A stretch of 64,000 nucleotides of DNA from a virus. The position numbers were made by a program, and so were the translations under genes. The notes under the pieces were generated by a model. It was not told the DNA's origin and searched no databases. It saw only the letters and a list, made by a program, of their open reading frames with translations. Below are positions 1,074 through 63,008 of this stretch, piece after piece (the first letter of the stretch is position 1; every line of letters begins with the position of its first letter). The stretch is taken from IMG/VR virus record IMGVR_UViG_3300025520_000001, positions 1-64,000 of that record. One strand, given 5' to 3'.

Positions 1074-1778
1074 TTAATTCTTAGTCTTCTTAGCAGGCGT
1101 TCCTTTGTCATCGACGTTTCCTCTCGGGCTGTGCGACAAAATGTACTGAACTGAAAGATTCTTCTGTAGCATGGGAATACCGATGTGGTCTACGAAGCCC
1201 AAGGACTTTGCCTGTTCAGCGTCTAGGTACAGATCCCTAGATTCGGTAAAGAGCTTCTTGAGTGCAGAAACTCCACCCTTAAGCTTGAGCTTCTTGGTGA
1301 GAAGCTTCATAATCTTCTCATTGAGCTTGGTTAGATTGGCGTGCTGAACATGAATGTCGTCAATGTGACCCGCAGCGCCAGAACTGATCTCATGAATCAT
1401 GACAGAGCTATATTCTGAAGCGAAACGCACATCTCCACACGCTAGGAGAATGGCTCCAGCACTCATCGCCTTACCGTGTGCACAGGTGATAATCTGGTTA
1501 GGAACCTGTTCCATTGCGCCAATCATGGTAAGGAGGGAATATGCGTCACCGCCGCCAGAGTCGATGTAGATGATAATCGGCTGATTGGGGTCTTGCTTGC
1601 TCTGATGCTGAATCTGCTTGACGAATGCTCTCGCCGTGTCCTCAGTGAACTTATTCACCCAAATCGGACCATCCTGGTCCATGATCTCAGGGATTTGCCC
1701 AACAACTGACACTGCTTCACCGTCCGCTTCATCTTCTTCGTGATCACAATCATTGCGCGTTTTCATGTTGAGCTTCAT
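1074..1778 (-). CDS. ClpP-family (S14) serine protease
   Basis: 234 aa. IIIYIDSGGGDAYS, HGKAMSAGAILLACGD (Ser), SSVMIHEISSG (His) match the ClpP/prohead-protease core. Confidence 0.8.
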   Translation of the reverse strand: MKLNMKTRNDCDHEEDEADGEAVSVVGQIPEIMDQDGPIWVNKFTEDTARAFVKQIQHQSKQDPNQPIIIYIDSGGGDAYSLLTMIGAMEQVPNQIITCAHGKAMSAGAILLACGDVRFASEYSSVMIHEISSGAAGHIDDIHVQHANLTKLNEKIMKLLTKKLKLKGGVSALKKLFTESRDLYLDAEQAKSLGFVDHIGIPMLQKNLSVQYILSHSPRGNVDDKGTPAKKTKN

Positions 1779-26964: not shown

Positions 26965-26965
26965 G

Positions 26966-27038
26966 TAGCGGACGTCGGAGTCGAACCGACTGTTCTCAGG
27001 TTATGAGCCTGCTGTGTAAACCGTTTCACTCGCCCGCT
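26966..27038 (-). tRNA. tRNA-Met: tRNA-Met/Ile2-type (anticodon CAU)
   Basis: Minus-sense AGCGGGC..GTG-AAACGGTTTA-CAC..GCAGG-CTCATAA-CCTGA..GTCGGTTCGACTCCGAC-GTCCGCT. 3-bp D-stem; one mismatch in the anticodon stem. Confidence 0.8.
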
Positions 27039-27935: not shown

Positions 27936-28415
27936 TTAGACGTACCAGGCTGGCTGGCCCCTTCCCTTGGCCCAACGGGCAATCTTTCGCTTCTCTCCGC
28001 AGTAATAGGCGCGATAGGCGACCACCGGGTCAGCATTCTTGTACTGATCAGGCATGCACTGGGCAAACGGCGTCATTGGTCCGCTGGTAATCGGAGGAGG
28101 ATTAGCACTGAGCCAGTCAATAACTTCCTGGCATTTATGCACTTTTTTATATCGTTCGGTGTATTCAGTGCTCAAAGCTTGAGCGTGCTTTAAGAGCCAC
28201 TGCCAGTTTGCTGTAGATTCTCGAGTCCACTTAGCGCTTGGGTGATTATAGTGGGTACGCTTATATGGTGCTAGTCCGGGGTCGTACGGCGAGCACAACA
28301 GCTGTACACTTTCTAGTGTCATCTTAACTACATGCTTGTCGGATTGATACTGCGCCGCTAGCACAGGGTCAAGGTCTAGTACGAATATGTTCACAGACCT
28401 TTTGCCCCGCGCCAC
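27936..28415 (-). CDS. conserved hypothetical protein (possibly pyrimidine-dimer-glycosylase-like family, unverified)
   Basis: 159 aa. LDLDPVLAAQYQSDKHVVKMTLESVQLL...THYNHPSAKW...EYTERYKKVH recalls a widespread phage/giant-virus family. Confidence 0.55.
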   Translation of the reverse strand: MARGKRSVNIFVLDLDPVLAAQYQSDKHVVKMTLESVQLLCSPYDPGLAPYKRTHYNHPSAKWTRESTANWQWLLKHAQALSTEYTERYKKVHKCQEVIDWLSANPPPITSGPMTPFAQCMPDQYKNADPVVAYRAYYCGEKRKIARWAKGRGQPAWYV

Positions 28416-28534
28416 AAATTCTTGCTAGCGCGCTTGTATGCATCATAACTGATAAGCTTTAATGTCGTTATCACGACCAAGAACGGGTACACGCACAGCG
28501 GGTTAGTTGTAGACCTGGTTTTATCATGCGCCAT
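28391..28534 (-). CDS. LxLIS mini-protein family member
   Basis: ATG at 28534 in ORF 28391..28597. MAHDKTRSTTNPLCVYPFLVVITTLKLISYDAYKRASKNLW... Confidence 0.4.
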   Translation of the reverse strand: MAHDKTRSTTNPLCVYPFLVVITTLKLISYDAYKRASKNLWRGAKGL

Positions 28535-35126: not shown

Positions 35127-35164
35127 TTCGGATAAGGGCGTGGGCGCGCCCGAAGCAGTGTCAG
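35127..35164 (-). promoter_or_regulatory. regulatory cassette, variant copy (CTGACACTGCTTCGG + CCGAAA box)
   Basis: Minus-sense GGCTGACACTGCTTCGGGCGCGCCCACGCCCTTATCCGAAACGATATTCG, about 150 nt upstream of the kinase ATG. Confidence 0.45.
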
Positions 35165-35236
35165 CCGTTTCTTATGATCGCTTGTCGGTATGCTTTACCT
35201 GTGCACAATCCTAGCGACACCATAAAATACAATATT

Positions 35237-35256
35237 AAGCGAACCCTGCTTCGCTT
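35237..35256 (-). terminator. hairpin with T-rich tail
   Basis: Minus-sense AAGCGAA-GCAGGG-TTCGCTT then AATATTGTATTTTAT, just after the stop at 35272. Confidence 0.4.
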
Positions 35257-35271
35257 AGCGTTGGGGCTCAA

Positions 35272-35505
35272 CTAGCTGTCCCGCTTCACTGCAATAAAAG
35301 TACCAACAAGAGTTCCTAGCGCAGCGGGAACCATAATCCATCGGTCTTCTACAATCAGAAGAGTGAGAGAGGCGCCGATGAGATAGATGGCGACTGACCA
35401 CAAGGATGCAGGAACTGCCTTCTTGTTTGAGACACCTGAAATGTACTTAGCCCAACCATAGTCGAGCAGAATCATTAGAAAAAATGTTGCGATGTATTTG
35501 GTCAT
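35272..35505 (-). CDS. small membrane protein
   Basis: ORF track 77 aa, two or three TM helices. Confidence 0.6.
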   Translation of the reverse strand: MTKYIATFFLMILLDYGWAKYISGVSNKKAVPASLWSVAIYLIGASLTLLIVEDRWIMVPAALGTLVGTFIAVKRDS

Positions 35506-35629
35506 GAACTTTTTACCAGAAAAAGTCTATAGTGGGCTTCACGGTACGTTTGATATGAACAAAGACCTAGATAATACACTGCGATTAATAAGTCGCGCAC
35601 CGCCACCTGATAATGTATCGTGGGCATTA

Positions 35630-35872
35630 TCATATCTTGACATTAACAGCAATAATCGGAGTAGGAATTTCAAGTACTTCTTTAGTGGCTTCTACTGTAA
35701 CTGTGAACGAAAGTCTCTTGCCAATTTCCTTAACGAAGGAATCAGCTGTGCCGTTAAAAGAAGCTACGTAACGGCTTATGGCGTGATCAGCGTCAAGAGC
35801 ATAGAAAGATTTCGGGTGACGCCAGGAACCAACTACAGTATACATTCGTCTCAGCTCACATACGCGTTTCAT
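35630..35872 (-). CDS. hypothetical protein
   Basis: ORF track 80 aa. Confidence 0.6.
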   Translation of the reverse strand: MKRVCELRRMYTVVGSWRHPKSFYALDADHAISRYVASFNGTADSFVKEIGKRLSFTVTVEATKEVLEIPTPIIAVNVKI

Positions 35873-36199: not shown

Positions 36200-36661
36200 T
36201 TACCCCTGCTGCGGAAGGAGGTGACGAAGGCTCTCGGGAATGGCGGCCACGTTCACCGTCTTCTTGGGCTTCAACTCGTTGATCCGCTTGTCGATCTCGA
36301 GCTGGATCTCCGACTTCGCCGTCTCATCGGTGGTGACCGAGAGGAGCGTGCGCATGGCCTTGAGCGTCTCGTCGCCCGAACCCGTGCGGGTACCCGGGTT
36401 CTTGGCCATGTAAGCCACATTGCCATTGAGCCGCTTGTCCTTGCGGAGCCAATTGCTCACGAGTCCGCTGACATACGCGGAGAGCTTGGCGCTGTCGGAC
36501 GCATCGCCCTGATAGACGATCTCTCCGGCCTGGAAACCCGCGATGAGCGCGGCCTGAACCTTGCCGCGCTCATCCTTGGTGAGCTCAACAGCTTCGCTGA
36601 ACTCAGTGGAACCACGAACATCACAAATCGCCTGAAAAACTGCATCCTTCTGCTTGGACAT
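36200..36661 (-). CDS. NWLRKDKR-family protein, paralog 1
   Basis: 153 aa. SNWLRKDKRLNGNVAYMAKNPGTRTGSGDETLKAM...LPESLRHLL aligns along its whole length with 58837..59292 and 62460..62924. Confidence 0.8.
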   Translation of the reverse strand: MSKQKDAVFQAICDVRGSTEFSEAVELTKDERGKVQAALIAGFQAGEIVYQGDASDSAKLSAYVSGLVSNWLRKDKRLNGNVAYMAKNPGTRTGSGDETLKAMRTLLSVTTDETAKSEIQLEIDKRINELKPKKTVNVAAIPESLRHLLPQQG

Positions 36662-42527: not shown

Positions 42528-42544
42528 GACCAATGCTTTCTTTG

Positions 42545-42644
42545 TGGAGAAGCCGGGACTCGAACCCGGTTCAATCGCCGCTAACTATGCCGTAACCCAG
42601 CATTGCCCTTTCTGCGAGGCGATTACAGCGCTGGGAGCTTCCCC
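42545..42644 (-). ncRNA. 100-nt tRNA-like RNA with G3:U70 acceptor and non-tRNA core
   Basis: GGGGAAG...CCGGGTTCGAGTCCCGG-CTTCTCC-A. Acceptor and T-arm are canonical. The 59-nt core has a 7-bp stem AATCGCC/GGCGATT and a possible pseudoknot CCCAGC/GCTGGG. Confidence 0.45.
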
Positions 42645-42652
42645 ATTACTAC

Positions 42653-42985
42653 TTACTTCTCGAACGGCAGACCACAACCGTATTCCTTCTCCTTCAGCCT
42701 GGTCAGTGTGTTCTGCACGACTGTCTTGTCGACTGGTGACAACTTCTTTTCATCGAGCATTGCGATGTTGTAGCAGAGCCCACGCAGCCTCGCGATGACC
42801 TTGAGATATTTCCTCTCAGTCTTTGACTTCGCCTTCTTCTTGGACTTTTTATGAGTCTTCGCTTCACATTTGCTACACACTTTACCGCTATTGCCAATGA
42901 AATACTTGGTCCCGACTTGTTTGCTACACACCGAGCAGTAGGGTGCTTCCCAGCCCTTGGTGTCAAAAACAGTTACTTTAATCAA
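42653..42985 (-). CDS. zinc-ribbon, Lys-rich hypothetical protein
   Basis: 110 aa. CSVCSKQ...CSKCEAK. Confidence 0.65.
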   Translation of the reverse strand: MIKVTVFDTKGWEAPYCSVCSKQVGTKYFIGNSGKVCSKCEAKTHKKSKKKAKSKTERKYLKVIARLRGLCYNIAMLDEKKLSPVDKTVVQNTLTRLKEKEYGCGLPFEK

Positions 42986-42999
42986 GTGTTACTCCTTGT

Positions 43000-43347
43000 T
43001 TACCAAATCACCTTCTGCTTGTGGAACTTCTTGTAAGCCACCATGCAAAGCAGCATTACCACGCAGAAGCTGAGGAAGTCGAAGAGATTACGTGCTGGGG
43101 TCGCAGTCGTTAAAACCATGACCTTCATTGACAGCAGCCGCATTAGCAAGCCAACGGCGATTACAAGCACACAGAACATGCTCCAAGGAGGGAAGCTCTC
43201 CAGCGTCGCGAGCAGGGCAATTGCCGTCGCCACCACACTCTTTGACGAGCCAACAGGGACCTTCACCAAAGTAGGTACCGCAGACTGGACACTTCGACAT
43301 TTGCGTTCCTCCACGTAGTCTTGCCACCGAATTTGCCGGTTGCGCAT
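43000..43347 (-). CDS. membrane protein ORF (alternative frame, overlaps 43088..43300)
   Basis: ORF 43000..43353. ATG at 43347 lies 5 nt after TAGAAT of a CCGAAC box (leaderless-type). Three hydrophobic segments. Confidence 0.35.
   Translation of the reverse strand: MRNRQIRWQDYVEERKCRSVQSAVPTLVKVPVGSSKSVVATAIALLATLESFPPWSMFCVLVIAVGLLMRLLSMKVMVLTTATPARNLFDFLSFCVVMLLCMVAYKKFHKQKVIW
43088..43300 (-). CDS. Cys-rich small protein (70 aa)
   Basis: ATG at 43300 preceded by GGAGGA at 6 nt. MSKCPVCGTYFGEGPCWLVKECGGDGNCP... Confidence 0.5.
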   Translation of the reverse strand: MSKCPVCGTYFGEGPCWLVKECGGDGNCPARDAGELPSLEHVLCACNRRWLANAAAVNEGHGFNDCDPST

Positions 43348-51326: not shown

Positions 51327-51881
51327 TTACCTTATTCTTCCCGGATGCCACGGACGGACAACTATCATCCTGCGGCGAACTATTTGTTCCGGTACCGGAA
51401 CATCATCTTCATCTTCATAGCAGAACCAAGCCTTGAGGAAGGCTTTGTGCGTTACTGCTGTGTACTTTCCAAGTACAGGCTCCATCATGTAAATATAGTT
51501 GTGGTCCATACCACATACAACTGAGTAATGTCCGCCGCCATCGTAGTCCCACAGGACGATTACTGGACCATTGCGTAGTTCGGCTTTCAACTTTGAGAGA
51601 GAAGCGCCATCTTCCATGGTAGCGAAGAAGCCTGCTCTGCGGCTCGCAAGCACTAATCCTTCACTCCAGGTCCCGTACTTGCGAGATGCACCAGACCACT
51701 CGGCTACACGCTTTTCAGTAACTCTGAGTCCATAGAATCGCATGATACTGGTGAGCGAAGCAGGACCACAGTAATTCGTGGTCTGCAGTACTAACGGAAC
51801 CTTATGTTTCCTAAGTCGCTTGGTGGCCACGTGACCCTCTCGGGGTCTATTATACCTGTGGCATGGCCTCCCAACGACCAT
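51327..51881 (-). CDS. C39-like (papain-fold) cysteine peptidase
   Basis: 184 aa. TTNYCGPASLTSIMRFYG (Cys) and GGGHYSVVCGMD (His). Confidence 0.75.
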   Translation of the reverse strand: MVVGRPCHRYNRPREGHVATKRLRKHKVPLVLQTTNYCGPASLTSIMRFYGLRVTEKRVAEWSGASRKYGTWSEGLVLASRRAGFFATMEDGASLSKLKAELRNGPVIVLWDYDGGGHYSVVCGMDHNYIYMMEPVLGKYTAVTHKAFLKAWFCYEDEDDVPVPEQIVRRRMIVVRPWHPGRIR

Positions 51882-55243: not shown

Positions 55244-55357
55244 TTATACGTTCGGATACGCGCCAGTGTACCACCTAAACTTTTCATACCACGCTTCCTG
55301 TGCTATCTCTCTTTCAGTTTTACGAGAAATAAGTTCAAGCTTGCGAAGCACCGCCAT
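55244..55357 (-). CDS. LxLIS mini-protein family member, N-terminally short (37 aa)
   Basis: MAVLRKLELISRKTEREIAQEAWYEKFRWYTGAYPNV. The family-like sequence YDAVIDL continues upstream without a start codon. A CCGAAC box lies in its last codons. Confidence 0.25.
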   Translation of the reverse strand: MAVLRKLELISRKTEREIAQEAWYEKFRWYTGAYPNV

Positions 55358-55373
55358 CAAGTCTATGACGGCG

Positions 55374-55514
55374 TCATAATTTAGCGCGCGAAATCAGCAG
55401 GTCCCAGTATGCAACGCATACTTGCTTGTAGGTCTCAGGCTGCACAATATGTAGCTTCTTAAGCACTATCAAGAAGTATATAACTGTGCTCGGATGGTCG
55501 CGTAGTTGCAACAT
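55374..55514 (-). CDS. LxL mini-protein family member (46 aa)
   Basis: Hand-translated MLQLRDHPSTVIYFLIVLKKLHIVQPETYKQVCVAYWDLLISRAKL. Confidence 0.4.
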   Translation of the reverse strand: MLQLRDHPSTVIYFLIVLKKLHIVQPETYKQVCVAYWDLLISRAKL

Positions 55515-55524
55515 GAATCTTTAA

Positions 55525-55959
55525 TTAGTCGTTCAAGAAGTTCTTGACGGTGTTGAGGTACAGCCGGCGGTTGAAGAAGAGCTCCCTCACCGCCTCAACC
55601 CGAGGGTTGTCGAACAGAGACGTGTAGTTGCGACCGGAATTGGTATTCTTGAGGTGACCCACGAAGTACTCCACGAGGTCCTTGGCCTCCTTGAGGCCGA
55701 TGCGGTTGTCTCCGTTGATGGTGGCACCGCCAATCTCGCGGATCACCTTGATGCAGTCGATGTGGCTGGGGTTGTCGCTACCCAACATCGAGATGAGCTG
55801 ATCCAGCTTGACCTCGAGGTTGCGCTGCTCAACCGTGATCACGTTGGTCTGAGCAAACTCGTTCTGCAGCTGACGGAGGAGATCCAGCGCCTCAGCTTCG
55901 GCGAGTCGAAGTTCATGAGCGTTGAGGATGAGGGTGTACGAGCGCTTGAGCGTGACCAT
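55525..55959 (-). CDS. protein with ribosomal bL12 (L7/L12) C-terminal-domain-like segment
   Basis: 144 aa. [30 protein letters not shown] versus E. coli bL12 [21 protein letters not shown], with 10 identical consecutive residues ([10 protein letters not shown]). Confidence 0.7.
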   Translation of the reverse strand: [144 protein letters not shown]

Positions 55960-56064: not shown

Positions 56065-56205
56065 CTAGAACAGTCTGTGTCTAAGTCGAGTCATCACTAT
56101 TATTCCTGTGTCGACTTTTATGATTCCGAGATTTACCATCATGCGCAGCACATCGTGATAGTGGTTGTACTCGTCTCTAGAAATCATTGTTATGACTGAG
56201 TCCAT
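56065..56205 (-). CDS. LxLIS mini-protein family member (array III-5, 46 aa)
   Basis: MDSVITMISRDEYNHYHDVLRMMVNLGIIKVDTGIIVMTRLRHRLF. Confidence 0.45.
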   Translation of the reverse strand: MDSVITMISRDEYNHYHDVLRMMVNLGIIKVDTGIIVMTRLRHRLF

Positions 56206-56339
56206 GGTTTCTTTGCCATAGTTTTCGTGGCTTCCACTCTGCTATCTTCGGCGATTAGACCCAAATCCTTTAACAGCCAAAAGAAAAAGTATAGTCGCCT
56301 GCGCTGCGGCTGGCTTAGTTTTAGATCACTTTCTTCCAT
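56190..56339 (-). CDS. LxLIS mini-protein family member (array III-4, 49 aa)
   Basis: MEESDLKLSQPQRRRLYFFFWLLKDLGLIAEDSRVEATKTMAKKPWTQS. Confidence 0.45.
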   Translation of the reverse strand: MEESDLKLSQPQRRRLYFFFWLLKDLGLIAEDSRVEATKTMAKKPWTQS

Positions 56340-56452
56340 ATCAATCTTGAAACTTCAAATCTTGTCTGCTCTGAGACAAGTTTTAGGTCCAACATCAGCC
56401 ACACTAATCCGTATAGCTGTTCTGCACGCTCAACAGTTATTTGTTTAAGCAT
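56321..56452 (-). CDS. LxLIS mini-protein family member (array III-3, 43 aa)
   Basis: MLKQITVERAEQLYGLVWLMLDLKLVSEQTRFEVSRLIWKKVI. Confidence 0.45.
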   Translation of the reverse strand: MLKQITVERAEQLYGLVWLMLDLKLVSEQTRFEVSRLIWKKVI

Positions 56453-56478
56453 TAATGCTCATTGCTCACGCAGTTGCT

Positions 56479-56610
56479 TTACTTAAGCATCTTTGGGAGA
56501 CGCGCTGCAGCGAGCCTTGTCGCTATTTGTCTAGTATTCATTCCGATAAGCTTTAGGTCCACCATCATCCAGAGGAAATGATAGAGCGCATAGTATTTAC
56601 TTGGTTGCAT
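56479..56610 (-). CDS. LxLIS mini-protein family member (array III-2, 43 aa)
   Basis: MQPSKYYALYHFLWMMVDLKLIGMNTRQIATRLAAARLPKMLK. Confidence 0.45.
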   Translation of the reverse strand: MQPSKYYALYHFLWMMVDLKLIGMNTRQIATRLAAARLPKMLK

Positions 56611-56734
56611 TATACTTCTTCCTCAAGAATTTGCAGATCTTGCTCCTAGATTCCTTGCCGATAAGGCCAGCAAAGGACAGAACCCATATAAAATTGTTGT
56701 ACCTGTAGAATTCTGGCGGATTAAACAGAATCAT
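56597..56734 (-). CDS. LxLIS mini-protein family member (array III-1, 45 aa)
   Basis: MILFNPPEFYRYNNFIWVLSFAGLIGKESRSKICKFLRKKYNATK. Confidence 0.45.
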   Translation of the reverse strand: MILFNPPEFYRYNNFIWVLSFAGLIGKESRSKICKFLRKKYNATK

Positions 56735-57117: not shown

Positions 57118-57177
57118 TTCGGAATAGCAAATAGCAGTATAGCGCCGGCGTAGCAGTGTCAGCGGCTATAGCCGCTG
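57118..57177 (-). promoter_or_regulatory. regulatory cassette (hairpin + CTGACACTGCTACGC + CCGAAT box)
   Basis: Hairpin cagcggc-tata-gccgctg at 57160-57177; 15-mer at 57148-57162; ttcgga at 57118-57123. Confidence 0.55.
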
Positions 57178-57281: not shown

Positions 57282-57662
57282 TCACTTCTTTTCGTTAAGG
57301 AGCTCGAAGAACTGCTTTGCTCCGTCTTCCTTCGAGATGATGCCTGCGTCGACCGCCAGCTTGATGAGCTGGAACTTGTCGTTGGGCGTCCCGCTCGAGG
57401 CCGGCGCCTTCTGCTTGGGGTTCACCCACGACTCGATGAGGCACGTCGGCTGCCGGCCGACGATGTAGTTGAGCGGATTGCTGAACGCGCGGGTTCCCGG
57501 GCGGATGCTCCAACGACCCTGCTGGAGCCAACCCATCATGATCTCGCCCACCTTCTTGCGCTGCTCATCGGTGATGACGAGGTTGCCGCGCACAGGCGCG
57601 TGGCCGAGGACCTGCTGAAGGGCGGTGCGGAGAGCGTCCTGCTGCGAATTGAACTTGTCCAT
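57282..57662 (-). CDS. diverged NW[LV]RKDKR-family paralog
   Basis: ATG at 57662 with AAAGGA upstream. VITDEQRKKVGEIMMGWLQQG and LNYIVGRQPTCLIESWVNPKQK parallel the family blocks. Confidence 0.65.
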   Translation of the reverse strand: MDKFNSQQDALRTALQQVLGHAPVRGNLVITDEQRKKVGEIMMGWLQQGRWSIRPGTRAFSNPLNYIVGRQPTCLIESWVNPKQKAPASSGTPNDKFQLIKLAVDAGIISKEDGAKQFFELLNEKK

Positions 57663-57876
57663 GGTAGTTTCCTTTTTTGTCAACTTTAAGTGGGAACCAA
57701 TTTCCCATCTCGTATCGACAGGTGAATATATGTTCGGATTAGTTCTTCACCTGTAGTTCGACAGCATTATCACTTCTTGTACTTATTCAACAGTACGGCA
57801 CGTGTTTAGTTCCTGATAATGGCGGGACTGGCGAGAGCAAAGAGAGCGGTGAAGGAGCCGATGAGATAGAAGGCGA

Positions 57877-58836: not shown

Positions 58837-59292
58837 TTACTTCGTCTGTACGAGGTGGCGGAGGCTCGGCGGGAGCGCTTCCACGTTGACCTCGACGCGC
58901 GGCCTGAGCTCCGCCTGGCGAGCCTCGATGGCCTTCTGGATCTCCTGCTTGGCCGCCGGGTCGGTGGTGATGGCCAGGAGGCTCTTCATCGCCTTGATGC
59001 TCTCGTCGCCGCTGCCGCTCCGCGAGCCCGGGTTCTTGGCGACGTACTGCGTGCCGCCGTTGAGCCGCTTGTCCTTGCGGAGCCAGTTGTTGACCAGGCC
59101 CGGCACGTACTTGCGGATGGCCACCTCGTCCGCGTTCTTGCTGTGCTGCGTGACGCCGAGCAGGAACATCTGCACCACCATATCGTGGATCTGCGTGAGC
59201 TGCTGCTTGGTCGGCTGGTACGCCTCGCCGTTGCTCTCGCCCATGACCTGCGTCACCGCCTGGAAGACCGCTTCACCCTGAGTGATCGACAT
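58837..59292 (-). CDS. NWLRKDKR-family protein, paralog 2
   Basis: 151 aa. VNNWLRKDKRLNGGTQYVAKNPGSRSGSGDESIKAM...LPPSLRHLV. Confidence 0.8.
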   Translation of the reverse strand: MSITQGEAVFQAVTQVMGESNGEAYQPTKQQLTQIHDMVVQMFLLGVTQHSKNADEVAIRKYVPGLVNNWLRKDKRLNGGTQYVAKNPGSRSGSGDESIKAMKSLLAITTDPAAKQEIQKAIEARQAELRPRVEVNVEALPPSLRHLVQTK

Positions 59293-59639: not shown

Positions 59640-59939
59640 TCACATGGTGTCCAATCGCTCGTCCCAGATATATTCAGTGAGCACCGAGTCAGTAGAGGCA
59701 CTGATGAGTTTTAAGTCTCGCAGAGTCGCGAGAAAGTCAAATACTACCCACACTACCTCTCTGTTTAACTTCCCCATGGTCCTTATTTCAGGTGTCCTGG
59801 TCACGTACACGCACCAACTCCTCTTGCGCGTCGCTACGCGCCCACATAAAGTCCATGACTTTTCTATCCGTCTCTGCCGAGATGATTCCAAGTAGTCGAA
59901 GTCCCCAAAGCAGATGTCTGACCCTGTAAACACCGCCAT
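59640..59939 (-). CDS. two-unit LxLIS family protein (99 aa)
   Basis: ORF track. Unit 1 ICFGDFDYLESSRQRRIEKSW; unit 2 VVWVVFDFLATLRDLKLISASTDSVLTEYIW. Confidence 0.5.
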   Translation of the reverse strand: MAVFTGSDICFGDFDYLESSRQRRIEKSWTLCGRVATRKRSWCVYVTRTPEIRTMGKLNREVVWVVFDFLATLRDLKLISASTDSVLTEYIWDERLDTM

Positions 59940-60133
59940 CAGATACCTTTATCATACCTCAACCTATATATGAGGATGCTCATTGCGTGGCTATCTGTCT
60001 TCCCGCTGATTAGCCCCATCAATCGGAGCAATAGTAGAAACAAGCCAATTCTGTTCGTGGCGGTGTGTTGCCACTCCCCACTCCCACCGCCACCGCCACC
60101 GTTAATTATGCTTGATCCCATTGGAGTATTCAT
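59939..60133 (-). CDS. LxLIS mini-protein family member (64 aa)
   Basis: ORF track. RIGLFLLLLRLMGLISGKTDSHAMSILIYRL, with a Gly6 run near the N-terminus. Confidence 0.5.
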   Translation of the reverse strand: MNTPMGSSIINGGGGGGSGEWQHTATNRIGLFLLLLRLMGLISGKTDSHAMSILIYRLRYDKGI

Positions 60134-60245
60134 GTGTGAACTTCAACATCACTTCGTGATCTGTCTTCCAGCTGACAAGGCCCAACTCTCGCATCAGGAA
60201 TAGCAGACGAGAGGTGCGGGTGAGTGTGATCCAGTCGCCCTGCAT
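60102..60245 (-). CDS. LxLIS mini-protein family member (47 aa)
   Basis: MQGDWITLTRTSRLLFLMRELGLVSWKTDHEVMLKFTHEYSNGIKHN. GAGGA 8 nt upstream. Confidence 0.45.
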   Translation of the reverse strand: MQGDWITLTRTSRLLFLMRELGLVSWKTDHEVMLKFTHEYSNGIKHN

Positions 60246-60299
60246 ACGAATAGTCCTCACGAGCTTTTACACCCTCCCGTAATTCCCATTAAGTTCGGA

Positions 60300-60650
60300 A
60301 TAGCTACTACACCTCTCTACACACCTACACTAAAATCGACTTACCAACGACTATCCTATATACTCTCCCTTACAGCTATACTAATACTCTGTAATACACA
60401 CTCTATCCCTATCCTCAATACTGTCTATAGGGGAAGGGAGGAATACTCCATATCAGTACTACTCTGTATCCCTAGAGGAGGGAGAAACTAGCCACTTCAA
60501 GCCTGTAACCTGCAGTATTTATTAGGAGAGGTGTGAAGAAAAGTCCAGTGTGGCCGCAGTCACTGCAAGGCCACCTGACTTATCAAGGGCTTACGCTTGG
60601 CCCCATGTGCGCCATCATGCTACATCCCTGTCCCCCTGCATGCCCATATA
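60300..60650 (-). pseudogene. decayed copies of the LxLIS mini-protein family (ORF-free stretch)
   Basis: Minus-sense MQGDRDVA*WRTWGQA*ALDKSGGLAVTAATLDFSSHLS* (compare 60102..60245) and ..VLRIGIECVLQSISIAVRESI*DSRW*. The family motif is interrupted by stops. Confidence 0.35.
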
Positions 60651-60654
60651 TCTG

Positions 60655-60680
60655 TTCGGAGCCCGGCGTAGCAGTGTCAA
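60655..60680 (-). promoter_or_regulatory. regulatory cassette, compact copy (TTGACACTGCTACGC-6 nt-CCGAAC)
   Basis: gcgtagcagtgtcaa at 60666-60680; ttcgga at 60655-60660. Preceded by a polypurine/polypyrimidine imperfect palindrome at 60684-60716. Confidence 0.5.
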
Positions 60681-60723
60681 CACCCTCTTCCTCCCTCCTC
60701 TATAGGGAGAAGGGAGAGAAACA

Positions 60724-60873
60724 CTAGGGAGAAAAGGGGAAGGATTGCCAGTCGTAATAGATCTTTCTCTTAGTATCTAGAGAGATTAGATGTAAGCGAT
60801 AGAGGACGTCGGCCAATCTATATAGCTTTATTCGAGATCCATGCAGCCCGATTCGAGATTGATTACTCTTCAT
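60724..60873 (-). CDS. LxLIS mini-protein family member (array I-h, 49 aa)
   Basis: MKSNQSRIGLHGSRIKLYRLADVLYRLHLISLDTKRKIYYDWQSFPFSP. Confidence 0.45.
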   Translation of the reverse strand: MKSNQSRIGLHGSRIKLYRLADVLYRLHLISLDTKRKIYYDWQSFPFSP

Positions 60874-61012
60874 AGTTAGGCGGAGCCTTGGCCCACTCCC
60901 TCCAGGTCATTACTATCACTTGCTCTCTGGTACTAAAGGAGATGAGATTTAGGCGATAGAGGACCTCATAGAGACTATAGAGGAAGTTGCGTTTAGTTAT
61001 GTTGAGCTTCAA
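60863..61012 (-). CDS. LxLIS mini-protein family member (array I-g, 49 aa, TTG start)
   Basis: (M)KLNITKRNFLYSLYEVLYRLNLISFSTREQVIVMTWREWAKAPPNYEE. Confidence 0.4.
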   Translation of the reverse strand: MKLNITKRNFLYSLYEVLYRLNLISFSTREQVIVMTWREWAKAPPNYEE

Positions 61013-61013
61013 T

Positions 61014-61151
61014 TCATTCTCTATCCCAGAATTGGGTCAGAAGATTGAGGCGAGTCTCATTAGAGATTAGGCCCAGGAGATAGAGGATCCAAGTGAAGTA
61101 GCGGATCTCTTCATATTTGCTTGCACTTATTTTTTGGTTCGGAGGAGGCAT
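61014..61151 (-). CDS. LxLIS mini-protein family member (array I-f, 45 aa)
   Basis: MPPPNQKISASKYEEIRYFTWILYLLGLISNETRLNLLTQFWDRE. TAATG overlap with I-e. Confidence 0.45.
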   Translation of the reverse strand: MPPPNQKISASKYEEIRYFTWILYLLGLISNETRLNLLTQFWDRE

Positions 61152-61285
61152 TAGTGTCTCCTAGTCCAGAGACTATTTATGTTCCTCATGCGGGTCTGGT
61201 AAGAGATGATCTGTATCCTATAGAGGAATATAGAGATCTTGTGGATGTGTAGGTAGGCTTCGTGGTTGAGAGTGTTGAGGTTCAT
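61151..61285 (-). CDS. LxLIS mini-protein family member (array I-e, 44 aa)
   Basis: MNLNTLNHEAYLHIHKISIFLYRIQIISYQTRMRNINSLWTRRH. TGATG overlap with I-d. Confidence 0.45.
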   Translation of the reverse strand: MNLNTLNHEAYLHIHKISIFLYRIQIISYQTRMRNINSLWTRRH

Positions 61286-61422
61286 CAGTATCTCCTGTCC
61301 CACAGTATGTCTAGGGTACGCATGCGGGTCTTACGGGAGATAAGCTGCAGTGTGTACAGCATGTAGCTTACATTGATGAGGTGTATGTACTGTTTGTGGT
61401 CTATGCGTTGAGCTATTACCAC
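61285..61422 (-). CDS. LxLIS mini-protein family member (array I-d, 45 aa, GTG start)
   Basis: (M)VIAQRIDHKQYIHLINVSYMLYTLQLISRKTRMRTLDILWDRRY. Confidence 0.4.
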   Translation of the reverse strand: MVIAQRIDHKQYIHLINVSYMLYTLQLISRKTRMRTLDILWDRRY

Positions 61423-61583
61423 AGCGGCATCTCGTCCAGGATGGAGTCATTAGCACTGCGCCTGGTCACCTCAGAAATGAGTCCCAGCTGCATCAGCACG
61501 TATATGAAGTCAGCTATCTTATAACCCTGCTGACGAGAGTACTTGAAATGGGGTTTCCGCTCCCCTTTGTAATTAAAGGTCAT
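61416..61583 (-). CDS. LxLIS mini-protein family member (array I-c, 55 aa)
   Basis: MTFNYKGERKPHFKYSRQQGYKIADFIYVLMQLGLISEVTRRSANDSILDEMPLW. ATG immediately follows the I-b stop. Confidence 0.45.
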   Translation of the reverse strand: MTFNYKGERKPHFKYSRQQGYKIADFIYVLMQLGLISEVTRRSANDSILDEMPLW

Positions 61584-61733
61584 TCAGTAATGGAGGTAGA
61601 TGGCATTGATAGCACGAACTCTAGTCGCCTCAGAGATGAGGCCTAGGATAGAGAGTACGGCCAGGAAGTCGGCCTGGCAGTAATACTCGTCCCAAGTAGA
61701 GTTGTAATTAGCGGTTGAAGTCGACACGGGCAT
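61584..61733 (-). CDS. LxLIS mini-protein family member (array I-b, 49 aa)
   Basis: MPVSTSTANYNSTWDEYYCQADFLAVLSILGLISEATRVRAINAIYLHY. Confidence 0.45.
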   Translation of the reverse strand: MPVSTSTANYNSTWDEYYCQADFLAVLSILGLISEATRVRAINAIYLHY

Positions 61734-61866
61734 AAGAGTTTAAAAGGGCTTTCGTGCGGCTTTCAGCGCCGCAGAGCCTCAGGAAGTACATGGTCCACAG
61801 GATGTAACTGATGGAGGTGCGCTCTAAGAAGGTGAAAGAGCGCCCGCGAGGTTCCTGCGCCTCCAT
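61708..61866 (-). CDS. LxL mini-protein family member (array I-a, 52 aa)
   Basis: MEAQEPRGRSFTFLERTSISYILWTMYFLRLCGAESRTKALLNSYARVDFNR. ATGA overlap with the stop of 61866..62255. Confidence 0.45.
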   Translation of the reverse strand: MEAQEPRGRSFTFLERTSISYILWTMYFLRLCGAESRTKALLNSYARVDFNR

Positions 61867-62255
61867 CAGTGAGAGTCGATGAAGGCCTGGAGCTCTTTCA
61901 CCTTCTCGCTGTAGAGGTGGATGCTGCTGCCGTACTTGTGGAGGTACTCGACGAGTCCCTTGGCGTACTCCTTGGCCTCATTGCCCTGGAGCGTCTCTGC
62001 CTGGCTGATGAGCTTGTCTCCCTCCACATCGCAGACGTGGTAGAGCTTGCCTTCGTGCTCGGAGAGCCAGCTGTTGGTGAAGTCTTCCCACTCTTCCAGC
62101 TCGCTGGACTCCTCGAGGAGCTCGGTCTCAGCAGTGACCATGAGCTCATGGTCGATGTAGCTGTAGCACCAGCCGCCATCCCAGGCATACTTGACGTGGC
62201 TCTCATTCACCTGCTCAGTGAACTGCTGCTTCAGCTGCTCGAGCTTGTCGCTCAT
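61866..62255 (-). CDS. acidic hypothetical protein
   Basis: ATG at 62255 (MSDKLEQLKQQF...) with GCAAGGAGCAAAGCC upstream. ORF 61866..62306. Confidence 0.75.
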   Translation of the reverse strand: MSDKLEQLKQQFTEQVNESHVKYAWDGGWCYSYIDHELMVTAETELLEESSELEEWEDFTNSWLSEHEGKLYHVCDVEGDKLISQAETLQGNEAKEYAKGLVEYLHKYGSSIHLYSEKVKELQAFIDSH

Positions 62256-62293
62256 GGCTTTGCTCCTTGCTAGGGCGTGTGAGCACTTATACG

Positions 62294-62356
62294 TTCGGCG
62301 AAGCAACTGCCCCTAGGCGTAGCAGTGTCAGCCGGCTCTGTACTAGCAGCCGGCTG
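62294..62356 (-). promoter_or_regulatory. regulatory cassette (hairpin + CTGACACTGCTACGC + CCGAACGTATAAG)
   Basis: Hairpin cagccggc...gccggctg at 62329-62356; 15-mer at 62317-62331; ttcggc at 62294-62299. Confidence 0.55.
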
Positions 62357-62459
62357 CACCACTCTGAGCCAAGTCATCTCCGGAGCAGGGAGCACGCTCA
62401 GACTGGAGGGAGTGCCGTCCCTCGTTTCCTAGACTCGCCTCTACGCTCGCTCCTACTAC

Positions 62460-62924
62460 TTACTTCACGAAGGCCCGCAGGTGCTCGGGCAGCTTGCTGA
62501 TGTCGAGCTGGACCTTCGGCTTGAGCTCTTCGAGGCGCTTGTCGATCTCCGCCTGCACGGCCAGCTTGGCCTCGGGGTCGGTCACCACGGAAAGCAGGAC
62601 CTTGAGGTTCTTGAGCTGTTCGTCACCGCTGCCGGTGCGGGAACCGGGATTCTTCGGGGCGTAGGTGACGCCACCGTTCATCCGCTTGTCCTTCCGCACC
62701 CAGTTGTTGGTGAGGCCGGGGATGTACTTCTTCAGCGAGATCTCGTCGTTGCCGCCCGAGTTCTTCTGCACCTCGCCGTTGAGGAAGCCGAGGAGGATGC
62801 GCTCGTGGACCTTTTCCGTCTGGTCCTTGGTCCACTGCGTGGTCGACGGCACCGGGCCATCGAGCTTGCCATCGTTGCCGAAGACGGAGAGAACCGCGAG
62901 GTACACCAATTCGCCCTGAGTCAT
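62460..62924 (-). CDS. NWVRKDKR-family protein, paralog 3
   Basis: ATG at 62924 (MTQGELVYLAV...) with CAAGGAGCAATACC upstream. TNNWVRKDKRMNGGVTYAPKNPGSRTGSGDEQLKNL...LPEHLRAFV. Confidence 0.8.
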   Translation of the reverse strand: MTQGELVYLAVLSVFGNDGKLDGPVPSTTQWTKDQTEKVHERILLGFLNGEVQKNSGGNDEISLKKYIPGLTNNWVRKDKRMNGGVTYAPKNPGSRTGSGDEQLKNLKVLLSVVTDPEAKLAVQAEIDKRLEELKPKVQLDISKLPEHLRAFVK

Positions 62925-63008
62925 GGTATTGCTCCTTGCTTGGACTACGTTCGAGTTGGACTGCACTATGATGAACTCTATGCTTCGTTCATCGTGACCT
63001 AATATAGG

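Follow-up and report, generated by a model that had tools for sequence, protein, structure and literature searches.

The interval 60724-61866 on the minus strand of the window, which is the whole 64,000-nt stretch analysed (positions 1 to 64,000 of IMG/VR record IMGVR_UViG_3300025520_000001), contains eight back-to-back tiny open reading frames (ORFs) that are real genes of a family unannotated until now. They encode soluble miniproteins of ~45-55 aa each and form the distal part of one operon, which consists of a promoter-like cassette, a 129-aa gene and the eight translationally coupled genes. The best explanation, to which about an even chance is assigned, is that the eight genes of this operon are members of an amplified and selected family of predicted two-helix miniproteins, which serves as a set of diversified small binders for host takeover or anti-defence. 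The binder, host-takeover or anti-defence role within this explanation is a best guess.

A sequence-only reading of this DNA had placed eight minus-strand ORFs in a region left blank by an ORF track with a 60-aa minimum. All eight were found at the expected coordinates (Table 1), and the interval holds 0 ORFs of ≥60 aa. Arranged end to end and 44-55 aa in length, they belong to a minus strand on which ORFs of ≥44 aa span 99.9% of the 1143 nt; in first-order Markov simulations (n = 2000), such ORFs covered a mean of 26% and a maximum of 80%, and a cover of ≥95% was reached in 0 of 2000. The stop codon of the 129-aa gene overlaps the start of ORF1 as TGATG. Further along, ORF1 and ORF2 overlap by 26 nt, ORF2 directly abuts ORF3 (TGA-ATG), ORF3 and ORF4 overlap by 7 nt, TGATG is common to ORF4 and ORF5 and TAATG to ORF5 and ORF6, a 1-nt gap separates ORF6 from ORF7, and ORF7 and ORF8 overlap by 11 nt. 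The Shine-Dalgarno sequences of members 5 (GGAG) and 6 (AGGAG) sit within the final codons of members 4 and 5, respectively. The GTG start of ORF4 and the TTG start of ORF7 are less certain. The earlier description of the ORFs as paralogous and tightly coupled is borne out by the HMM and by the reading of the junctions, where the predicted TGATG, TAATG and out-of-frame overlaps were recovered but no literal ATGA was seen. Similarly, the motif L-x-L-I-S-x-x-T-R/K, thought to be shared by all eight, is present in seven, with ORF1 carrying the variant LRLCGAESR. Since three independent assemblies are 100% identical, the frame changes between ORFs are not sequencing errors. JGI, ENA and Logan already list several family members among their predicted proteins. 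Source samples of the phage are IMG 3300001796, SRR6212578 and ERZ27300254.

Table 1. Operon elements and family members in the window.
Feature	Coordinates	Strand	Remarks
Cassette, upstream half (TGACACTGCTACGCC)	62316..62330	-	Opens the operon
Cassette, downstream half (CCGAACGTATAA), -10-like TATAA box	62287..62298	-	~32 nt upstream of the ATG at 62255
First operon gene, 129-aa acidic protein	61866..62255	-	AAGGAG Shine-Dalgarno; called as 129 aa in public assemblies
Member 1 (ORF1)	61708..61866	-	52 aa, ATG; variant motif FLRLCGAESRT; in public protein sets as P0003
Member 2 (ORF2)	61584..61733	-	49 aa, ATG; ILGLISEATR; AlphaFold-modelled
Member 3 (ORF3)	61416..61583	-	55 aa, ATG; QLGLISEVTR; P0008
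Member 4 (ORF4)	61285..61422	-	45 aa, GTG start; LQLISRKTR
Member 5 (ORF5)	61151..61285	-	44 aa, ATG; IQIISYQTR; P0009
Member 6 (ORF6)	61014..61151	-	45 aa, ATG; LLGLISNETR; P0007
Member 7 (ORF7)	60863..61012	-	49 aa, TTG start; LNLISFSTR
Member 8 (ORF8)	60724..60873	-	49 aa, ATG; LHLISLDTK; last operon gene
Next cassette (15-mer + CCGAACAGATAT)	60648..60679	-	45 nt beyond member 8; ends this operon, starts the next
Second array, four overlapping members	59640..60260	-	'T-D' signature (LGLVSWKTD, MGLISGKTD, LGIISAETD, LKLISASTD)
Third array, five overlapping members	56065..56734	-	After a 111-aa gene and a cassette at 57161
Member in third array	56479-56610	-	Second AlphaFold-modelled member
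Pair of members	55244..55514	-	LHIVQPETY, LELISRKTE
Two dispersed members	35161..35642	-	35502-35627, 35161-35271
Dispersed member	28391..28534	-	LKLISYDAYK

The cassette recurs along this arm of the genome, with a spacing of 0.7-2 kb throughout 55-64 kb. Its upstream half has 11 copies in the window at ≤3 mismatches (1.45 expected), CCGAAYNNATAW occurs 9 times and only on the minus strand (0.32 expected), and an exact copy of the cassette 14-mer stands in 63 of 79 related loci, on the gene strand every time. The cassette is unlike sigma-70 promoters, and predicted sigma-70 promoters and terminators were not above chance. The 440-nt leader after the array is no more structured than its shuffles (z = +0.56), and an Rfam search returned tRNAs only. 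For the 129-aa protein, no match was obtained in Pfam, PHROGs or NCBIfam.

The family extends well beyond this operon. With an HMM built from the eight ORFs, a search of 1218 six-frame ORFs identified 21-22 clear copies in the window (E ≤ 4e-6) and ~10 borderline ones, every one of them on the minus strand, which is the coding strand; the earlier estimate of dozens of paralogues was about right. Further copies are present beyond the window on the 172.5-kb contig of this uncultivated phage, whose genome probably holds at least 40. Identity is 24.9% within clusters against 20.2% between them (permutation p < 2e-4), and the family is tandemly amplified locally.

Selection was proposed earlier to act on the protein rather than on a DNA repeat, and three measures agree with this. 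Pairwise identity at codon positions 1, 2 and 3 is 0.33, 0.51 and 0.28, i.e., the second position is conserved and the third is near random, and in 19 of 22 copies codon usage is better in the annotated frame than in any of the other five. In addition, 14 orthologous pairs (694 codons) yield a dN/dS of about 0.29 in frame against 1.1-1.3 in shifted frames, a comparison that draws on relatives and the left arm of this phage, leaves out the eight ORFs and slightly favours the annotated frame through its protein-level alignment. No diverged orthologue of the eight ORFs was found among the relatives examined, other assemblies of this phage being identical. At the DNA level, similarity is confined to a 35-nt core with 60-74% identity, and no tandem DNA repeat was found in the interval. 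Purifying selection acts on the family.

The family alignment contains no conserved 7-mer, and related loci were gathered through a multicopy neighbour-gene family of ~150 aa (148-170 aa), for which 3594 unannotated homologues exist. Related uncultivated phages of ~160-178 kb carry similar arrays; complete contigs in this size range include JAWVGZ010000127.1, ERZ724522 NODE-7 and JACCDT010153396.1. Separate genes also occur in diverged relatives, in which gene callers annotate genes of 57-66 aa, and in one relative (L032) two units are fused in one ORF. Array copy number and position turn over fast between related phages. Homologous family arrays were recovered in these phages but not the exact synteny of the eight-ORF operon, whose 129-aa leader gene has no homologue among the relatives examined; what is conserved between phages is the family, not this particular array. 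When 50,697 phage records were searched, neither megablast of the 55-64 kb region nor tblastn of a 605-aa and a 168-aa protein gave a match. The ribonucleotide reductase is only ~39% identical to those of N4-like roseophages, which is uninformative. Because the metagenome-assembled genome (MAG) bins carrying the relatives are taxonomically scattered, no host could be assigned.

Structure prediction with AlphaFold gave a consistent fold for two members that share 32% identity, both of which were modelled as helix-linker-helix. Helices are predicted at residues 14-30 and 35-48 of member 2 (pLDDT 81.8) and at residues 5-18 and 24-41 of the 56479-56610 member (pLDDT 85.3), with linkers of 4-5 residues (G-L-I-S and L-K-L-I-G). 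Each protein is predicted to be a helical hairpin, with an aromatic, very hydrophobic helix 1, a linker x-L-I/C-S and a helix 2 capped by S-x-x-T. In a column profile of 55 members, positions -11, -10, -8, -7, -4, -2, -1 and +11 are 73-100% hydrophobic, position +7 is about half hydrophobic (mostly A/I/V), the capping residues are S in 84% and T/S in 88%, and no position has a conserved charged residue. Conserved positions are nearly all hydrophobic or helix-capping, while the others, which would face outward if the helices are as predicted, vary freely. The N- and C-terminal tails around the conserved hydrophobic module vary as well. Small membrane proteins (holins, type I toxins, hli-like) were considered and rejected, given a maximum 19-residue Kyte-Doolittle mean of 0.59-1.59 across all 22 members.

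As stated in the sequence-only reading, no described system is known to match. Searches of Pfam, PHROGs and NCBIfam with members and neighbours produced nothing usable, PDB profile searches returned 0 matches, and Foldseek searches against PDB and BFVD produced best E-values of 2.3 and 0.86 to generic helical hairpins, which are uninformative. A profile search of 1.84 billion proteins found no known family, and both this search and a word-indexed search of 5.8 billion proteins recovered little beyond the phage's own proteins and spurious eukaryotic repeat proteins, a domain of this length being too short to reach significance across a whole database. Three weak extra matches came from the 5.8-billion-protein search, one of them on a 159.9-kb relative contig.

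The motif had been likened to the turn and recognition-helix start of helix-turn-helix (HTH) proteins, and it is possible, if doubtful, that the miniproteins are minimal HTH-like or helix-extension-helix (HeH)-like modules binding phage or host DNA or RNA, e.g., as transcription or nucleoid modulators. A classical HTH comprises a tri-helical core (three or more helices) whose helices 2 and 3 form the motif and are linked by a tight turn of three residues, the first of them a conserved Gly. Like HTH domains of the Cro/Xis/LuxR/Fis type, the family has two successive helices, a short junction that can contain Gly (G-L-I-S-x-x-T-R), a Ser/Thr-capped helix 2 and many basic members: pI exceeds 8 in 17 of 22 copies, R/K is the commonest class just after the capping Thr, and basic residues are enriched at helix 2 positions +4, +6, +10 and +14. 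However, both models contain only two helices, with no third helix for a core, the linker of 4-5 residues is one or two longer than the canonical turn, and the 'turn' Gly (position -3) is unconserved, occurring in 31% of the 55 members. Five of the 22 copies are not basic, some members are acidic with a pI of 4.5-4.7, and in one entire cluster the Thr is followed by Asp instead of Arg. Pfam scans of 10 and then 48 members detected no recurrent HTH, SAP or Rho_N family, the one HTH_SB match being sub-threshold (E 0.044), and hhalign comparisons with Fis, the SAF-A SAP domain and Rho-N, three sequences entered by hand, gave 0.1% probability each; the HTH resemblance is left unsupported. HeH motifs (SAP, LEM and the Rho N-terminal domain) come closer in size, being two-helix modules of ~35 residues whose extended hydrophobic linker includes G-L, found as small stand-alone or terminal units, and the secondary structure of the two models is compatible with such a SAP/HeH/Rho_N layout, with no significant Foldseek match. 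In the present family, however, an aromatic helix 1 of much greater length is predicted, neither linker nor spacing follows the SAP consensus (L..L...GL...G.K..L..RL), and the Pfam scan of 48 members returned no SAP or Rho_N match.

Three further explanations receive less credence. It is unlikely that the two-helix module acts as a tag for targeting or assembly, docking variable tails onto a common phage partner (virion, scaffold or replication compartment), or that the paralogues co-assemble into a hetero-oligomer. The conserved module between varying tails would suit such a tag, products expressed together from a single operon would be made in matched amounts, and longer borderline members hold the module at the C-terminus; on the other hand, structural genes are absent nearby, and no candidate common partner was found, the ~150-aa neighbour family being an association only. 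A fixed-assembly role is further disfavoured because copy number and identity change freely between relatives, which is unusual for such parts. Far less probable is a set of RiPP- or bacteriocin-like precursors with a conserved leader processed by a C39-type cysteine peptidase. Small paralogues in tandem that share a conserved motif but differ in their tails do recall multi-precursor RiPP loci, and a stand-alone Peptidase_C39 domain protein is encoded in the window at 51327-51881, ~9 kb from the array. This reading was nevertheless rejected: the alignment contains no double-glycine or other common cleavage motif, Cys makes up 0.7% of residues with no Cys/Ser/Thr-rich core, the conserved motif is central and lies in the predicted folded core, and no modification enzyme or transporter adjoins any array. 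Finally, directly adjacent units in all three frames, a weak but detectable 35-nt DNA repeat family and the fused ORF of L032 could suggest decayed, frameshifted remains of a larger repeat-protein gene, or a by-product of a repeated DNA element. Such an origin is the least credible of all and, as a pseudogene reading, was rejected as already largely refuted by the contrast between in-frame and out-of-frame dN/dS; moreover, the codon-position pattern and the identity of the assemblies speak against it, all units begin with a start codon of their own that lies at, or overlaps, the stop before it (two with a Shine-Dalgarno), and the split architecture persists in diverged relatives.

Under the preferred explanation, that of diversified small binders, helix 1 would be too hydrophobic for a monomeric two-helix hairpin, and the proteins therefore probably pair, with themselves, each other or a target, into helical bundles. 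Each paralogue would then present a different surface on one scaffold, and the set would be expressed jointly under a class of promoters specific to the phage, in the genome arm that holds small accessory genes, with the miniproteins binding or inhibiting host proteins during host takeover or anti-defence. The setting is that of such modules, with small accessory genes clustered in a promoter-dense, fast-evolving region. These modules form a functional class rather than a sequence family, and would further be marked by early expression and by products that bind or inhibit host factors. A bolder version, rated as rather improbable, holds that the phage clade keeps a germline 'library' of dozens of two-helix miniprotein binders, tandem-duplicated and surface-diversified, which would neutralise shifting host defence or housekeeping proteins; if true, the family would belong to a new class of multicopy proteins by which phages counter defences or take over the host, and would offer a minimal scaffold for binders that occurs in nature.

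To our knowledge, multigene families of dozens of copies are seldom found in phages, whose genome size is limited by packaging. Maintenance of a scaffold of 45 residues in 20-40 or more selected copies implies a strong copy- or diversity-dependent benefit, and if the copies are target-specific binders, they would constitute a new anti-host strategy as well as a natural scaffold for compact binders. Standard annotation does not reveal the family, many copies being uncalled and none named, which shows how much of the coding content of large uncultivated phages goes undetected. Furthermore, the exactly conserved cassette and the ~150-aa neighbour family mark a widespread clade of ~170-kb phages, whose expression programme is now open to study.

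Among known systems, Rop and Sda are dimeric helical-hairpin miniproteins that are single-copy and not known to be amplified in phages. They resemble the family as two-helix hairpins of ~45-65 aa in which pairing is expected to bury a hydrophobic face, but no sequence similarity or significant Foldseek similarity to them was found. The genes of the phage SPO1 host-takeover module are, as far as we know, not paralogues of each other, whereas here one scaffold is amplified dozens of times. Large lytic phages have host-takeover modules, of which the 26-gene SPO1 module is an example (bioRxiv 10.1101/569657), and the present arrays resemble it as dense small genes of unknown fold that lie in a promoter-rich accessory region, would be co-transcribed and are dispensable or variable between relatives. 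Catalogues that collect small proteins of phages and microbes (Fremin et al. 2022, as cited in PMC11364881; GMSC, PMC11364881) likewise comprise unannotated phage ORFs of <60 aa that can be detected by comparative signals alone. No named family was found for this motif, and what is distinctive here is the within-genome copy number together with the tandem coupling.

The eight back-to-back minus-strand ORFs described in the sequence-only reading were all recovered, with the same boundaries, in an ORF listing with a 25-aa cut-off, and they are almost certainly real genes. Of the 1143 nt of this array, 99.9% lie within minus-strand ORFs of at least 44 aa, compared with a mean of 26% and a maximum of 80% in 2000 Markov simulations (0/2000 at ≥95%). 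The genes are co-oriented and translationally coupled. As read from the sequence, the stop codon of the 129-aa gene that opens the operon overlaps the ATG of member 1 as TGATG, and the junctions from member 1 to member 8 are, in order, a 26-nt overlap, a TGA-ATG abutment, a 7-nt overlap (GTG start), TGATG, TAATG, a 1-nt gap (TTG start, member 7) and an 11-nt overlap (members 7/8). For members 5 and 6, a Shine-Dalgarno sequence (GGAG or AGGAG) lies within the W-(D/T)-R-R codons of the preceding member, so that the duplicated unit brings its own ribosome-binding site. Five of the eight ORFs already appear in public gene calls as unnamed proteins, and one is called in the Logan annotation.

An HMM seeded on these ORFs and iterated over all six-frame stop-to-stop ORFs of the window that reach 30 aa (1218 in total) converges at 22 members, every one on the minus strand. 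A broader HMM yields 21 matches at E≤4e-6 in the window and then a gap, below which 11 more minus-strand matches (E 0.08-0.76) precede the first plus-strand match. Identity between members is higher within clusters (24.9%) than between them (20.2%; permutation p<2e-4), indicating old local duplications. Three data sets yielded independent assemblies, 100% identical to one another, of the 172.5-kb contig holding the window, and the family continues into the flanks of the same phage on both sides. To the left, isolated copies lie amid nucleotide-metabolism genes, while to the right (L004:3600-6500, minus strand) a divergently transcribed arm carries about 10-12 consecutive small genes of 57-98 aa with the same hydrophobic helix, F-L-x-x-L-x-x-L-x-L, the I-S-x-x-T part often missing. 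A similar small-gene arm sharing this helix is found in a related locus (L080:6000-9500). Judged by sequence, the small genes of the two arms suggest a superfamily wider than the HMM captures.

Features of the miniprotein family, its neighbours and the promoter-like cassette
Feature	Coordinates (strand)	Details
Family members	60724-61866 (-)	n=8
Family members	59640-60260 (-)	n=4
Family members	56065-56734 (-)	n=5
Family members	55244-55514 (-)	n=2
Family members	35161-35642 (-)	n=2
Family member	28391-28534 (-)	n=1
Modelled member	61584-61733 (-)	pLDDT mean 81.8; helix 1 residues 14-30; linker G-L-I-S; helix 2 residues 35-48
Modelled member	56479-56610 (-)	pLDDT mean 85.3; helix 1 residues 5-18; linker L-K-L-I-G; helix 2 residues 24-41
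~150-aa family paralogues	62460-62966, 58837-59292, 57282-57683, 36200-36661 (all -); L004:6553-7017	
Arrays in relatives	L008/L009	10-12 copies
Array in relative	L011	9 copies
Further arrays in relatives	L010/L019, L007, L032, L080, L081, L083	
First-half motif starts	63765, 63043, 62330, 60679, 58764, 57161, 48683, 35163 (-)	
CCGAAY-NN-ATAW, further sites	57737, 55255, 45403, 39510 (-)	

The proposal that the repeated unit is conserved as protein and not as a DNA repeat is borne out. Pairwise nucleotide identity among the 22 paralogues is 0.33, 0.51 and 0.28 at codon positions 1, 2 and 3; a search for a tandem DNA repeat across the eight ORFs found none, and only a 35-nt core is detectable among them at the DNA level (60-74% identity). 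The annotated frame outscores the other five in 19/22 members under a codon model that had been trained on 16 long genes from the window. Since no diverged orthologue was found for the eight ORFs, selection was measured on orthologous family members elsewhere (L008 vs L011, and the L004 arm of the source phage vs L080). Across 14 orthologous pairs (694 codons), in-frame pN/pS is 0.50 (bootstrap interval 0.45-0.56) and dN/dS 0.29, compared with 1.1-1.3 in the other two frames of the same alignments, which were made at protein level and slightly favour the annotated frame; in the pairs from the L004 and L080 arms, dS is saturated and dN is 0.26-0.72. The small proteins are thus under purifying selection. 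Codon-usage scores of the members are lower than those of longer control genes, and the GC content of the four arrays between 55244 and 61866 is 42-50% vs 57-65% in neighbours. Given the purifying selection, it is highly improbable that the ORFs represent a decayed repeat gene or non-coding sequence.

Interleaved with the arrays are at least five paralogues of a ~150-aa protein family with the motifs NNW-RKDKR-NGG and KNPGSR-G-GDE. Public data contain 3594 homologues of this family, each annotated as 'hypothetical'; the longest contigs bearing them measure 125-178 kb, and searches of Pfam, PHROGs, NCBIfam and the PDB gave no match. The family marks a widely distributed clade of uncultivated phages some 160-178 kb in length. 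With this family as bait, miniprotein homologues were found as arrays in several relatives. These arrays differ in content and position between relatives, and the 129-aa gene has no homologue in the relatives that carry them. The miniprotein family is locally amplified and variable between genomes: what is conserved is the family, while individual arrays turn over.

AlphaFold2 models built with paralogue alignments for two members, 32% identical to each other, consistently give a helix-linker-helix fold. In a column profile of 55 members from the source phage and its relatives, with the conserved Ser as position 0 (Ser in 84%), hydrophobic residues occupy helix 1 positions -14, -11, -10, -8, -7 and -4 in 78-100% of members; Leu occurs at -2 in 89%, Ile, Cys or Val at -1 in 96% and Thr or Ser at +3 in 88%. 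Hydrophobic residues make up 73% at +11 and about half to 59% at +7 (A/I/V), +8 and +12 (Trp frequent), and none of the columns shows a conserved charge. What is conserved is therefore a hydrophobic core with helix capping, and the other, would-be outward positions vary around this shared two-helix scaffold.

A bipartite promoter-like cassette, TGACACTGCTACGCC followed after 5-27 nt by CCGAAC-NN-ATA(T/A), stands on the gene strand ahead of gene groups. In the window, its first half occurs 11 times vs 1.45 expected and its second half nine times vs 0.32 expected, 9/9 on the minus strand. One copy (62287-62330) stands ahead of the 129-aa gene that leads into the eight ORFs, and the next (60648-60679) follows 45 nt after member 8, which places the eight ORFs in the distal portion of a single transcription unit. 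In 63/79 related loci, whose neighbouring proteins are only ~40% identical to those of the window, the cassette's 14-mer is exact and always on the gene strand. The cassette does not fit a sigma-70 promoter; a polymerase, sigma factor or regulator encoded by the phage may recognise it. The four-member array is separated from the cassette at 60679 by an ORF-free leader of ~440 nt (60261-60723, minus strand), rich in TATAG/GAGTA, with a second CCGAAC box near 60293 and a piece (60471-60531) 78% identical to locus L006; its predicted structure is not above that of shuffled sequence (z = +0.56). Two other short non-coding stretches are 80-85% identical to relatives (43147-43242 vs L007:9840-9935; 62365-62438 vs L008:5988-6057) in phages whose proteins are far more diverged, and may be regulatory or RNA elements.

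Several other genes were also noted. A 144-aa protein (55525-55959, minus strand), possibly the phage's L12-like protein, matches the C-terminal domain of ribosomal protein L7/L12 below the Pfam threshold (E 0.0022; 18.7 bits vs a cut-off of 25.9) and contains the string GLKEAKDLVE, an L7/L12 signature. At 51327-51881 (minus strand) lies the gene for a cysteine peptidase of the Peptidase_C39 type (Pfam E 8.6e-12), which stands alone, with no ABC transporter fused to it. Ten tRNA genes predicted by ARAGORN are scattered over 11-47 kb on the gene strand, all but tRNA-Met at 26965-27038 confirmed by Rfam (9/10), whereas a 149-nt ARAGORN 'tmRNA' at 42544-42692 (minus strand; tag ASQKGQCWVTA) has no Rfam tmRNA match at gathering thresholds and is probably a false positive. 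A ClpP-family protease gene (1074-1778, minus strand) is followed beyond the window start (L090:10819-15658) by genes for an HD-domain protein, RNA ligase, RlaP, 5'-nucleotidase and thymidylate synthase, a nucleotide and RNA-repair block in the same long transcription arm.

The miniproteins are striking in copy number and conservation; their mode of action is what we infer. Because helix 1 is largely hydrophobic (seven positions at 78-100%) and a lone hairpin cannot bury it, the proteins would probably pair into bundles, with themselves, a paralogue or a target as partner. The combination of a conserved core with freely varying surfaces, many copies and fast turnover is what one would expect of a family of diversified binders, which might act on host factors; this protein-binder reading is tentative, at even chances or somewhat less. 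Nucleic-acid binding is a less probable alternative. Basic members predominate (17/22), a few being clearly acidic, and the helix-turn-helix likeness suggested from sequence alone is not borne out by the predicted structures: canonical helix-turn-helix proteins have three helices and a shorter turn, whereas the miniproteins are predicted to have two helices and a longer linker, and their Gly is not conserved. Comparison by hhalign with Fis, a SAP domain and Rho-N gave a probability of 0.1%; there may be a looser likeness to helix-extension-helix motifs, though nothing supports it. A role as an assembly or targeting tag is unlikely, and RiPP-like precursors are very unlikely; a transmembrane-grade hydrophobic stretch is absent from all 22 members.

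No match to a described family was found. Pfam searches with 10 and then 48 members returned isolated, non-recurrent sub-threshold matches alone; PHROGs and PDB sequence profiles gave no significant match for the family, nor did Foldseek against PDB and BFVD for the modelled members, and a profile search run against all 1.84 billion representative proteins retrieved only the source phage's own ORFs and spurious repeat proteins. The arrays thus represent a lineage-specific, unannotated miniprotein family with a copy number exceptional for a phage, belonging to no described family yet falling within the broad known category of small accessory phage genes. As a possible functional analogue, we propose the host-takeover module of SPO1 (bioRxiv 10.1101/569657).
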